From contig NC_006908.1 of the NCBI RefSeq assembly GCF_000008365.1, positions 210,001 to 242,000 on the forward strand: DNA of 32,000 nt. The letters are read 5' to 3'. Shown piece after piece: positions 16,054-19,981 of the stretch. The position numbers and the translations under genes were made by a program. This DNA comes from Mycoplasma mobile 163K. Lineage in GTDB: Bacteria > Bacillota_I > Bacilli_A > Mycoplasmatales > Metamycoplasmataceae. The first letter of the stretch is position 1, and every line of letters begins with the position of its first letter. The notes under the pieces were generated by a model. The model searched no databases. It worked only from the letters and a program-made list of their open reading frames with translations, and was not told where the DNA came from.

Positions 16054-17640
16054 ATGAAAAATTTAAAAATAACAGCAATTAAAGATAACTTAATTTTTGT
16101 CGAAGGTGAACATCAGTTTAGCTTTTTGGAAATTATTAAATTCAGCGATAAAGTTGAAGGAGTTGTTTTAAAAGCTAATGACAGAAGTGCAATAGTTGCA
16201 ATTCTAAATGAAGACAAAGATTTAAACTTAACAGTTGGATCACTTGCAGAAGCAACAGGAGAACTTTATAAAATCCCTATTTATGATAATTATTTAGGAT
16301 CAATTATCAATGTTTTGGGTGAATCTTTAGTTAAACAATATGAAAGAACAAATGTTGCTTTGGATAAAAAATATGTTTTTACAGAAGCACAACCAATTTT
16401 TACACGTAGTGCAGTAAATGAACCACTTGTTACAGGAATTACAGTAGTAGATGGTGTTTTACCAGTTGGTAGAGGTCAAAAGGAATTGATTATTGGAGAT
16501 AGAGGAACTGGTAAAACAGCTATTGCTTTGAATGCTATGCTTGCTCAAGAAAATACAGATGTAATTAACATTTTCATTGCTATTGGTAAAAAAAGAGATG
16601 AAATTGTAGAAATTTATGGAACATTTAAAAAACATAATATTTTACATAAATCAATAATTGTTTCAGCAGCAAGTGATGATGCAGTTGCAGCAAGATATTT
16701 AGCTCCTTATGCAGGAATGGCAATTGCTGAATTTTTCCAACAAATTGGTAAGGATGTTTTAGTTGTAATGGATGATTTAACTAATCATGCTGATGCTTAT
16801 AGAGAATTATCTTTACTTGCTGGAATTGCACCAGCAAGAGAAGCATATCCAGGAGATATTTTCTATGTACATTCTAGTTTATTAGAAAGAGGTGGAAAAT
16901 ATGGTCCTGAATTTGGTGGAGGTTCAATAACTATTTTACCGATTGCCCAAACTTTAGCAGGGGATATTAGTGGATATATTCCAACAAATCTAATTTCAAT
17001 TACTGATGGACAAATTTATACTTCAGCAAAATTATTTAATGAAGGTACAAGACCAGCTATTGATGTTAATTTAAGTGTTAGTCGTTTAGGATCGGCAGCT
17101 CAATCAAAATTTATGGCATTTGCTTCTAGTGGACTTAAAAAGATTTACACCGAATATAAATATCTAAAAAGACTTTCATCATTTTCTTCTAAAATTTCTA
17201 ATAGAGATCTTGAAACTTTACAAAAAGGGAAAGCATTTGAATCTTTAATTGATCAAGCTGAGTATGAAGTAATTGATTATGAAACTAGTGCAATTTTATT
17301 TCTATTGCTTAAAAAAGGTTTTTTAAACTTTTACACAGAAAAAACAGAAGCTTTAAAGGTTATCATTGGTGTAATAAAAGTCTTTTTAGCCAAAGATGTT
17401 CTTGGAAGAAAAATGCGTGCAATTTTAGTAGAACATGGAATTGATTCTATTGTTTGAAACCTTTATTTAAATCATATGATTCTTCCGCTTTTAAAATACC
17501 ATTTATTATCAGAACTTCAATATTTAGCAACAAATCGTGAATTTATTAAAAAGTTCAAGGACATTAGAAATGATGGTAGAATTTTATTAGCATACGAGAG
17601 AAAAGGATATGAAAGAGGTATAGCATATGACTACAAATAA
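16054..17640 (+). CDS. F1-like ATPase cluster gene 6: F1 alpha-subunit-like ATPase (528 aa)
   Basis: P-loop [13 protein letters not shown], Walker B region [44 protein letters not shown], arginine-finger context [20 protein letters not shown]. The ORF continues past TGA 17455 to TAA 17638-17640. ATG 16054 is preferred over the track's TTG 16039. Confidence 0.9.
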
Positions 17641-19981
17641 TCTTACAGAATTAGAAATTTTAAATATTAAAAAATATTTAAAAACTGTTAATTTAAATAC
17701 TCTTAGAGCATACGCTAGAAGAAATGTTAAAGATTTTTCAGAAAAATTAATTAAAGTTAAAGTTATTGAAAAAATTGTTGAACATGATAAAAAATTTGAC
17801 AACATTGAAGATAGTATATTTGTTCAAATTTCTTCACAATTTGGAGTTAATTTTGAAACTATTCTTGATGGAAGTTTTTTCTTAGGACAAAAAGCTGCAA
17901 AAGCAATGCCAAAAACATTTGATACTAAAATTATTAGTGAAACTAAATCAGTTCAAAAATTTGAAGAAGTTAAATTTGCAACTTCTTCGAAAACTGAAAA
18001 AATAATTTCAGAAGAAAAAGAAATTTTACATTTAATCGAACAAAGTAAACGTGATAGAGATTTCATAGATAATTTTAGTAAAATTTTAGAAGAAAAAAAT
18101 CTTACAGAGGAACATCAACATATGTCTTGTCAAGTTTGTTATGACCATGAGAAAAAACATTCAGATCATAATGAAAAATATGCAACAGAGCATTGTGATG
18201 CTTGTGTTTACCATGATTTTAGTGATTTAGATCCAGAATTTGTAGCAAGCACATATACTGAAGAAGAAATTATTCATAATTTATTGTTTAAACTTTATTC
18301 AGTGGAACAATTAGCTTTATTTACAATTGACCAGTTAAATGCTTTACTTTTTGCTAGAGGTTTAGGTTTAGAAAAAAATAAAGTAAGAGCAATTAAATCT
18401 TTATTAACTTTACAAACAAGTTATGAATTTATGGAAAAATCTCAAGCAGCTTTATTACCTAAAGTTTCTTTTAACCCAACAAATCCATTAAAACCAATTG
18501 AAGAAAAAGAATTCACAATTTTTGGTGAAATTGTTGAAATTAGATCTCAAGTTTATAAAATAAGAATTGACAAAGCTGAAGAAGAAGTCTTACCAAAAGT
18601 AATTTTTTATGCAGATGTAAATGGAAAAGAAATTCAATTAGAAGTTGCAGATATTTTTGATAAAAATCTAGTCTCAACTTTTGTCTTAGGAAATGAAACA
18701 GGATTAAAAATTGGAACAAAAGTAAAATCAAAAAACCAATCATATGCAATTAAAATTAGTAAAAGATTACTTGGAAGAGTTATTGATCCAATTGGTAAAA
18801 TTTTAGATGATAGTATAGCTACTCCAGTTCATGGAAATATGTATGCTCCTTTAGAAATGCAACATGATAGTGAAGCTACTCGTTATGTTGTAAGTCCAAA
18901 AAATGCAATTCTTGAAACAGGTATTAAAGTAATCGATGTTTTACTTCCGATTCCAAAAGGTGGAAAAACTGGTCTTCTTGGTGGAGCAGGAGTAGGTAAA
19001 ACAGTTATTGTTCAAGAATTGATCAATGCTTTTATTAAATTCCATGATGGAGTTAGTGTTTTTGCAGGAATTGGTGAGAGAATTCGTGAAGGTCATGAGT
19101 TATGAAAAGAAGCAGAAGCTTTAGGATTTTTAAACAAAACAGCCTTTATTTTTGGACAAATGAATGAATCTCCAGGATTAAGATTTAGAAGTGGAATTTC
19201 AGGTGTAAAAGTTGCTGAATATTTCAGAAATAATTTAGGAAAAAGTGTTTTATTATTTATGGATAATATCTTTAGATATGTTCAAGCAGGTAGTGAAATT
19301 TCTTCATTATTAGAAAAAACTCCTTCAGCTGTTGGGTACCAACCTACTTTGTTTAGTGAAATGGGACAATTACAAGAAAGAATCAATTCAACTAAAGATG
19401 GAGACATTACTTCAATTCAAGCTATGTACATTCCAGCTGATGACTTTACTGATCCAGCAGCTGTTGCAGCTTTTGCTCACTTTGATTCAACAATCATTTT
19501 AAGTCGTCAATTAGCAGCAGAAGGTGTTTATCCAGCTATTGATCCATTAGAAAGTAATTCAAAAATGCTTTCAATTAAATATACTTCAAGAGAACATCTA
19601 GACATTGCTAAAAAAACAGTTCAAACTTTAGAAAAAACAAAAACACTTGAAGATATTATCAATATTTTAGGATTTGATGCCTTGAGCGAAGATGATAAAA
19701 AAGTTGTTGAGGTTGGAAGAAGATTGAAATGATTCTTAACACAACCATTTGTTGTTGCAGAAAAATTCAGTGGAGTCCCAGGTAAATTTGTTAGGTTAAA
19801 AGATTCTCTAAAAGGAATCAAAACAATTTTAGATGGTGATTTAAACCACATTCCAGTTTCATACTTCTCTTTTGTTGGAGTTGTTGAAGAAATTATCGAA
19901 AAATTCAATTTAGATGCTAAAAAAGAAGCTTTAAAAAATGAACTAGAACAAAATCAAAAAGATCTTGCTTCAATAATATAA
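17627..19981 (+). CDS. F1-like ATPase cluster gene 7: F1 beta-subunit-like ATPase with ~296-aa N-terminal extension (784 aa)
   Basis: Fragments 17627-19105 and 19160-19732 plus the tail to TAA 19979-19981 are one frame joined by TGA. P-loop [28 protein letters not shown], Walker [37 protein letters not shown] (DELSEED-like), [15 protein letters not shown]. The ATG overlaps the alpha-like gene by 14 nt. Confidence 0.92.

Follow-up and report, generated by a model that had tools for sequence, protein, structure and literature searches.

A two-module N-terminal extension, partly outside the known structure, on the G1-ATPase beta subunit of the Mycoplasma mobile gliding motor

Canonical F1 beta subunits are about 460-480 aa long and carry the crown at their N-terminus. 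The 32,000-nt stretch of the Mycoplasma mobile 163K genome analysed here (NC_006908.1, positions 210,001 to 242,000; hereafter the window) encodes a beta-like protein, MMOB1670, in which 296 residues precede the crown, and the question raised by this locus is how this N-terminal extension (nucleotides 17627-18514 of the window) is built and what it does. An earlier note, made from the sequence alone, had read it as carrying two segments of helix-extension-helix (HeH) type and had placed it on top of the hexamer as a substitute for the missing stalk subunits. The explanation that we retain, and that we regard as very probable when taken as a whole, is that MMOB1670 acts as catalytic beta subunit in the Type 2 G1-ATPase driving gliding and that nucleotides 17627-18514 encode its N-terminal region. 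Within this region, two short modules are conserved across orthologs and are separated by a variable linker; the second lies in the domain that docks the glycolytic enzyme phosphoglycerate kinase (PGK), and the first lies in a part absent from the published atomic model. To our knowledge, the Type 2 ATPase is the sole known F1-type rotary engine that has been rebuilt into a cell-gliding motor; few features set it apart from ordinary F1, the beta extension being among them.

The MMOB1670 window has a GC content of ~25% and was translated with table 4 (TGA = Trp). With table 11, the beta gene is truncated at the TGA at position 19105, and the table 11 gene calls for the window were discarded since TGA codons split the genes; with table 4, a single open reading frame (ORF) of 784 aa is obtained. 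The gene and its F1-like part are as follows:

17627-19981, + strand: MMOB1670, gene of the G1-ATPase beta subunit (table-4 ORF, 784 aa, stop included)
18515-19978, + strand: F1-beta-like body with crown, nucleotide-binding domain (NBD) with Walker motif and domain with the DALSEDD loop (PDB and Pfam/NCBIfam alignments begin at aa ~297-300)

Compared to the PDB with phmmer, the 784-aa protein matches chain A of entry 9IO5, "G1-ATPase subunit beta", with 1720 bits over residues 1-784 and 100% identity. Identity at 784 of 784 positions assigns the window to Mycoplasma mobile and the gene to MMOB1670; the earlier note had cited MMOB1670 for its extension of about 299 aa, and the protein in the window proves to be MMOB1670 itself. 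The NCBIfam model NF045858 ("MMOB1670 family gliding motility ATPase complex subunit") is reached with 1209.8 bits for a cutoff of 850, its positions 1-704 matching aa 17-774. Note that this profile includes the extension, which alone scores 198 bits on positions 1-226. The atpD profile TIGR01039 covers only aa 300-759 (520.9 bits, cutoff 462.85) and fits less well than NF045858. PDB entries for canonical F1 beta chains can be aligned only from query aa 294-335 onwards, e.g. 297-761 for 1mab_B and 298-760 for 2xok_D. As the alignments of both canonical beta chains and atpD start at about aa 297-300, aa 1-296 have no counterpart in canonical beta subunits, as the earlier note had stated. By sequence, MMOB1670 would thus not be classed as a canonical F1 beta (atpD), a 296-aa extension preceding the part that matches atpD.

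Is the extension translated? The earlier note had named a start codon near aa 297 as the finding that would undo it, the extension being then untranslated. Against such a start, 9IO5 was deposited with this very 784-aa sequence and its model includes residues from 125 and from 201 onwards (Table S2, PMC11864180), and an 88.4-kDa band was assigned to the protein by peptide mass fingerprinting (PMC8406192). The orthologs give the same answer. A genome scan yielded 18 Mollicute loci, from M. agassizii PS6 and 17 metagenome-assembled genomes (MAGs) of Metamycoplasmataceae/Mycoplasma, which we aligned together with M. mobile using MAFFT (19 sequences). In all 18 orthologs, the ORF opens right after an upstream stop, with the first ATG within 5 codons, and the N-terminus is conserved from Met1. 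In M. mobile, the start lies inside the end of the upstream gene:

16054-17640, + strand: MMOB1660, G1-alpha, 528 aa (Pfam ATP-synt_ab; length equal to the Table S2 value)

The end of alpha and the start of beta share 14 nt (17627-17640), and a Shine-Dalgarno-like motif, GAAAGAGG, is found at 17611-17618 within the alpha coding sequence, 8 nt before the beta ATG. We found no point in favour of the downstream start, which is already refuted and retains practically no probability; the start at Met1 is upheld. The overlap, together with the Shine-Dalgarno-like motif, is consistent with a translational coupling of the two hexamer subunits.

The layout of the extension emerges from the 19 aligned sequences:

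aa 1-58, 17627-17800, + strand: module 1, basic and helical, 50-58 aa in the 19 sequences, net charge +4 to +9, six invariant columns; holds the first HeH-like segment (aa 5-51)
aa 59-213, 17801-18265, + strand: variable linker; M. mobile: 155 aa, acidic (net charge -14); orthologs: 58-124 aa, K/T-rich
aa 125-159, 17999-18103, + strand: helix modelled only in beta6 of 9IO5, mostly within sequence absent from orthologs
aa 163-198, 18113-18220, + strand: Cys4/His-rich insert, candidate metal-binding site, M. mobile only
aa ~201-265, 18227-18421, + strand: beta N-terminal domain (NTD), five helices, PGK-docking; contains module 2 and the second HeH-like segment (aa 224-262)
aa 266-296, 18422-18514, + strand: linker 2, or strap, 28-32 aa across the 19 sequences, length nearly fixed

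The ortholog beta ORFs, read with code 4, are 678-749 aa long except for one cut at a contig end, and their extensions span 196-259 aa compared to 296 aa in M. mobile. Module 2 (aa 214-265) is 52-54 aa long in all 19 sequences and contains nine invariant columns. Identity to M. mobile is 29% in module 1 and 33% in the NTD, versus 10-16% in the linker; in the region of helix 125-159, a mean of only 12.4 of the 35 residues align. Both segments singled out by the earlier note are present at aa 5-51 and aa 224-262, and both turn out to be conserved islands, with mean column identities of 60% and 67%, respectively, the sequence between them being barely alignable. The description of that sequence as an acidic, His-rich linker holds for M. 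mobile but not for the orthologs, whose linkers are neutral to basic. In four of the MAG loci (L001, L002, L013 and L016), the linker contains short tandem-like K/T-rich repeats (KTQTLKMG, KTQALKMS, KTQTLKTS; e.g. aa ~75-108 of L001), basic and of low complexity.

The fixed length of module 1, its six invariant columns and its NTD-like conservation indicate purifying selection. Judged from the alignment, the NTD, the strap and the distal basic module are shown to be under constraint, and the leash between them to be free to vary. An exhaustive phmmer search of aa 1-296 against 1.84 billion representatives returned no match other than MMOB1670 itself, and word-indexed homolog searches gave no match either with the extension alone or with a 12-sequence profile. 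With extension and crown together, the word-indexed search gave one match, P0002, a 648-aa protein from ENA metagenomes. P0002 keeps module 1, and in the middle of module 2 (…QLNVIA) it jumps into the crown (EVKSQVYKIQ…); given this jump, it lacks NTD helix 5 and the strap. This deletion is either a natural variant or an assembly artefact.

The extension as a whole is already known, from its description in 2012, from NF045858 and, in part, from the 2025 structure. Beven et al. (2012) described a ~30-kDa N-terminal extension of 200-300 aa specific to Type 2 beta-like subunits (PMC3369863), and Toyonaga et al. (2021) assigned a 'hook' density to this extra region of 34.8 kDa (PMC8406192). The twin motor was then resolved by electron cryomicroscopy at ~3.2 Å (Toyonaga et al., Sci Adv 2025; PDB 9IO5; PMC11864180), and about 100 of the 299 extra beta residues are visible in it (PMC11864180). 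The NTD (residues ~201-265), made up of four to six helices, uses H2, H4 and H5 to bind PGK (MMOB4530) at its C-terminal domain (PMC11864180), and residues ~266-299 form a linker that descends on the hexamer's outer side, past the crown and the NBD (PMC11864180, text and legend of Fig. S9). In beta3 and beta6, the N-terminal region makes contact with the alpha NBD of the partner G1-ATPase hexamer and thereby bridges the dimer (PMC11864180). According to Table S2, the models start at residue 201/202 in beta2 and beta5, at 213 or 217 in beta6 and beta3, and at 281 in beta1 and beta4; helix 125-159 is modelled in beta6 only, and residues 1-124 and 160-200 are absent from all beta models (PMC11864180). 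The same table lists two chains of 9IO5, Y and Z, as 'unknown helix' of 13 and 9 residues (PMC11864180), which might derive from beta aa 1-200 or from parts of GliD (see below) outside the model. New with respect to this literature are the two-module layout and its conservation across orthologs, the Rho-N-like similarity, the conservation of aa 1-58 and the Cys4/His motif. PMC11864180 discusses neither a HeH/Rho-N likeness nor the Cys4/His motif, nor that residues 1-58 are conserved, and module 1 is not a topic of the other literature searched.

Where does the extension sit? The earlier note had proposed that three extensions stand atop the alpha3beta3 crown at the OSCP/delta site and act as a stator, tether or oligomerisation element in place of delta and b, a reading close to what Beven et al. 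had speculated, namely that the hexamer might carry ~90 kDa of additional mass on top, with an effect on the stalk connection (PMC3369863). It agrees with the cluster encoding no delta or b homolog and with G1-alpha lacking the H1 helix that binds the stalk (PMC11864180). For residues 201-299, however, it is contradicted by 9IO5: the linker follows the outer side of the ring, the NTDs project to the side, their orientation varying, and hold PGK, and the N-terminal face of the hexamer is occupied by the extended C-terminal helix of gamma (PMC11864180). The stalk-like role belongs to another protein of the cluster:

10026-10907, + strand: GliD (MMOB1620), 293 aa, bridge/stalk-like subunit dimerising two ATPases (length equal to the Table S2 value)

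GliD is a two-helix stalk-like buttress and dimerising element, for which a derivation from b plus delta was proposed (PMC11864180). Delta and b are missing from Type 3 ATPases as well, yet these have no extension. We therefore consider a crown-top stalk substitute very improbable. What stands of the proposed functions is tethering and oligomerisation, through the docking of PGK by the NTD and the contacts of beta3 and beta6 with the partner alpha NBD; the stator does not. The comparison of extensions across clusters of Type 2 and Type 3 that the earlier note had suggested is impossible because Type 3 beta-like subunits have none (PMC3369863, PMC12994834), the MSC_0618_beta profile aligning to MMOB1670 only from aa 300.

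Do the two modules belong to the HeH families? For module 2, a profile built from 12 orthologs and compared to all PDB sequences matches Thermotoga maritima Rho in its N-terminal domain (3L0O, residues 12-51) with E = 0.029, its sole non-self match at E < 0.1, and hhalign of this profile to the Rho 40-mer gives a probability of 95.8% (post hoc). One of the 12 orthologs matches Pfam Rho_N in module 2 (E = 0.043, sub-threshold). For module 1, two of the 12 match Rho_N (best E = 0.026) and one matches SAP (E = 0.032), all sub-threshold, and hhalign places it in register with the Rho 40-mer at a probability of only 8.6%. For each module, AlphaFold2 (AF2) predicts two helices joined by a short loop. 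From a single sequence, AF2 models aa 1-308 with a predicted local distance difference test score (pLDDT) of 39, most of the variable linker lying at 25-40 and one long helix at 121-156; aa 198-280 reach a pLDDT of 81.9 and form five helices, compatible with the published helix count.

Several results weigh against a HeH reading. None of three sub-regions covering the segments of M. mobile itself matched a Pfam family at E ≤ 10, and no M. mobile segment or ortholog reached the curated HeH, SAP or Rho_N thresholds. The module 1 profile had no match in the PDB, and the two modules compared with each other by hhalign align in register over the helix-loop-helix core with a probability of 2.9%, which leaves an internal duplication, considered as their origin, unsupported despite the in-register alignment. 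A Foldseek search with the aa 198-280 model returned no Rho or SAP structure, its weak matches being RAD51-paralog N-domains and TAG glycosylase and all non-self E-values being at least 0.88; note that this model is itself a poor fit to the NTD of 9IO5 (TMq 0.35, root-mean-square deviation 12.5 Å), and because of this poor superposition on the experimental domain, no conclusion on the fold can be drawn from it. Neither module, going by these profile scores, qualifies as a member of the HeH, SAP or Rho_N families. A Rho-N-like HeH core is plausible in module 2, with marginal statistics, and suggestive in module 1. Of the two HeH-like segments proposed in the earlier note, the second thus finds some support in the Rho match and the first has sub-threshold matches only.

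If a HeH fold is present in module 2, and more weakly in module 1, it would be used for docking a protein instead of binding nucleic acid, i.e. a nucleic-acid-binding fold would have been reused to dock a glycolytic enzyme. One may ask conversely whether module 1, possibly together with module 2, is a genuine SAP/Rho-N domain by which the motor chains would be tethered to DNA or RNA. The sub-threshold Rho_N and SAP matches would fit, as would the strongly basic character of module 1 and of the K/T-rich ortholog linkers. However, the family thresholds are unmet, the adjoining linker of M. mobile is strongly acidic, no nucleic acid was reported in the purified twin motor, and module 2 is seen on PGK, a protein (PMC11864180). 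As the only module with a known ligand binds a protein, this alternative is weak, and we judge a nucleic-acid tether quite unlikely.

What, then, does the extension do as a docking device? In the published structure, helices H2, H4 and H5 of the NTD clamp the C-terminal domain of PGK, the strap holds the NTD against the flank of the same beta subunit, and two of the six beta N-terminal regions contact alpha of the partner hexamer, helping to hold the twin motor together (PMC11864180). PGK (MMOB4530) has 511 aa in full, about 100 of them a non-canonical addition. Module 1, at the end of a flexible leash, would most likely capture a second partner, mobile or labile upon purification, for which candidates may be the N-domain of PGK (not in density), a neighbouring chain or the membrane/jellyfish scaffold. 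The puzzle is that module 1 is conserved like the PGK-binding NTD yet absent from all six beta copies in the 9IO5 model. Some 200 residues of each beta, or roughly 1,200 in a twin motor, cannot be seen in the structure, and one 58-residue module among them is conserved like the PGK-binding domain.

In the simplest account of this invisibility, residues 1-200 would be a disordered spacer or an evolutionary remnant devoid of specific function, and only the NTD and the strap would matter. Except for a single helix in one of the six copies, none of these residues is modelled; this, the low AF2 confidence, the exhaustive phmmer search without relatives and a linker of freely varying length, charge and sequence, with a species-specific Cys/His insert, all agree with this account. 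It is at odds with module 1, whose near-NTD level of identity, well above that of the linker, and whose invariant columns and fixed length across the 18 orthologs follow the pattern expected from purifying selection. We consider a spacer without function unlikely. Module 1 could also be flexible simply for having no partner, and none has been observed, which weighs against a docking role for it.

The M. mobile leash has one further peculiarity. The only four Cys of the 784-aa protein are found in aa 163-198, as C168-x2-C171-x18-C190-x2-C193, among seven His; the earlier note had passed over this motif within its His-rich linker. Cys accounts for 0.15% of the residues in the proteins of the window, so that the probability of at least four Cys in 27 aa is ~8e-8 per position. 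The two CxxC pairs, separated by a short loop, have the spacing of a Cys4 zinc ribbon or knuckle, and from this motif the insert probably binds a metal ion. Compared to Pfam at E ≤ 10, it matched no family, zinc-binding or other; its region lies outside the 9IO5 model (Table S2, PMC11864180). In PMC11864180, the main text makes no mention of zinc or cysteine, and the supplement none of zinc. The insert is absent from 18 of 18 orthologs and is therefore dispensable for the core function. If it does bind metal, it could make the assembly sensitive to metal or redox state.

Putting these elements together, we tentatively propose that module 1 is a second docking head of Rho-N/HeH type on a leash, with a partner distinct from that of the NTD, and that the M. 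mobile leash has gained a Cys4/His metal-binding insert; taken jointly, these parts make a possible but rather doubtful whole. A second docking head, if true, would explain the organisation of twin motors into sheets, and the identity of its partner could explain chain-to-chain or chain-to-membrane coupling.

The genes around MMOB1670 form the seven-gene cluster of Type 2 ATPases. In addition to alpha, beta and GliD, given above, it comprises:

8564-10006: protein with 12 transmembrane (TM) segments (MMOB1610), first of the seven-gene cluster
10932-11942: gamma-like protein (weak PF00231 match)
11945-12541: 198-aa protein, cluster member (epsilon-like in the Type 2 order)
12553-16029: MMOB1650, large protein (1158 aa) bearing a signal peptide and, at its C-terminal end, TM segments

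The Type 2 order, i.e. 12-TM protein, GliD, gamma-like, epsilon-like, large protein with signal peptide and TM segments, alpha-like and beta-like, is present in the code-4 ORFs from 8564 to 19981 with beta last, and the subunit lengths of 293, 336, 528 and 784 aa equal those of Table S2 in the structure paper (PMC11864180). The order GliD-gamma-epsilon-alpha-beta recurs in the ortholog loci, GliD being found 5' of beta wherever the upstream sequence suffices. In MAG loci L002, L003, L005, L009-L011, L013 and L016-L018, homologs of MMOB1610 and MMOB1650 are located ~6-8 kb downstream of beta, as opposed to the interleaved order 1610-GliD-gamma-epsilon-1650-alpha-beta of M. mobile and M. agassizii, which indicates that the soluble and membrane parts are separable blocks.

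Directly 3' of the motor beta, phosphotransacetylase-like and acetate-kinase-like genes are found in M. mobile (20100-22254) and in M. agassizii (locus L007, 13235-15348), so that a second substrate-level ATP-generating step is encoded beside a motor to which PGK is physically recruited. The flanks of the 17 MAG loci yielded no pta or ackA match. Upstream of the cluster, ORFs 2201-4753 and 4754-7273 were considered as a MIB-MIP pair, a sign of Type 3, and rejected, since the second reads as a class I aminoacyl-tRNA synthetase and the cluster is of Type 2. By eye from its translation, ORF 4754-7273 is most likely a valyl-tRNA synthetase; ORF 2201-4753 (+ strand, 850 aa, K/N-rich) directly abuts it on its upstream side.

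How does this extension compare with known systems? The closest is the 9IO5 protein itself (Toyonaga et al. 2025, PMC11864180), for which the extension of ~299 aa, the helical NTD, the linker, the docking of PGK and the bridging of the dimer were described. The Type 2 orthologs (M. agassizii PS6, the 17 MAGs and the NF045858 family) share with it the synteny, the two-module extension, the 52-54-aa module 2 and the 28-32-aa strap, and differ by shorter extensions, basic K/T-rich linkers, the lack of the Cys4/His insert and the absence of most of the helix 125-159 region. The beta-like subunits of the Type 3 'F1-like X0' ATPases (MSC_0618/MMCAP2_0575 family, associated with MIB-MIP) have a homologous catalytic body and a parallel seven-gene cluster, likewise without delta or b (PMC3369863, PMC12994834); at ~50 kDa, however, they are devoid of the N-terminal extension (PMC12994834, 2026).

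With the Rho N-terminal subdomain (PF07498; 3L0O residues 12-51) and the SAP/HeH domains, the likeness lies in the pattern L-x-x-m-x-x-x-Q-L...G-I...K-x-x-x-I-x-a-I-L and in the predicted succession of a helix, a short extended loop and a helix. Module 2 of MMOB1670 differs in being embedded in a five-helix PGK-binding domain, whose ligand is a protein and not a nucleic acid (PMC11864180). Lastly, the V-ATPase with aldolase and phosphofructokinase-1 offers a parallel, drawn in PMC11864180, for the recruitment of a glycolytic enzyme to a rotary ATPase; in the G1-ATPase, by contrast, the enzyme is PGK and it is held by a dedicated N-terminal domain of the catalytic subunit.

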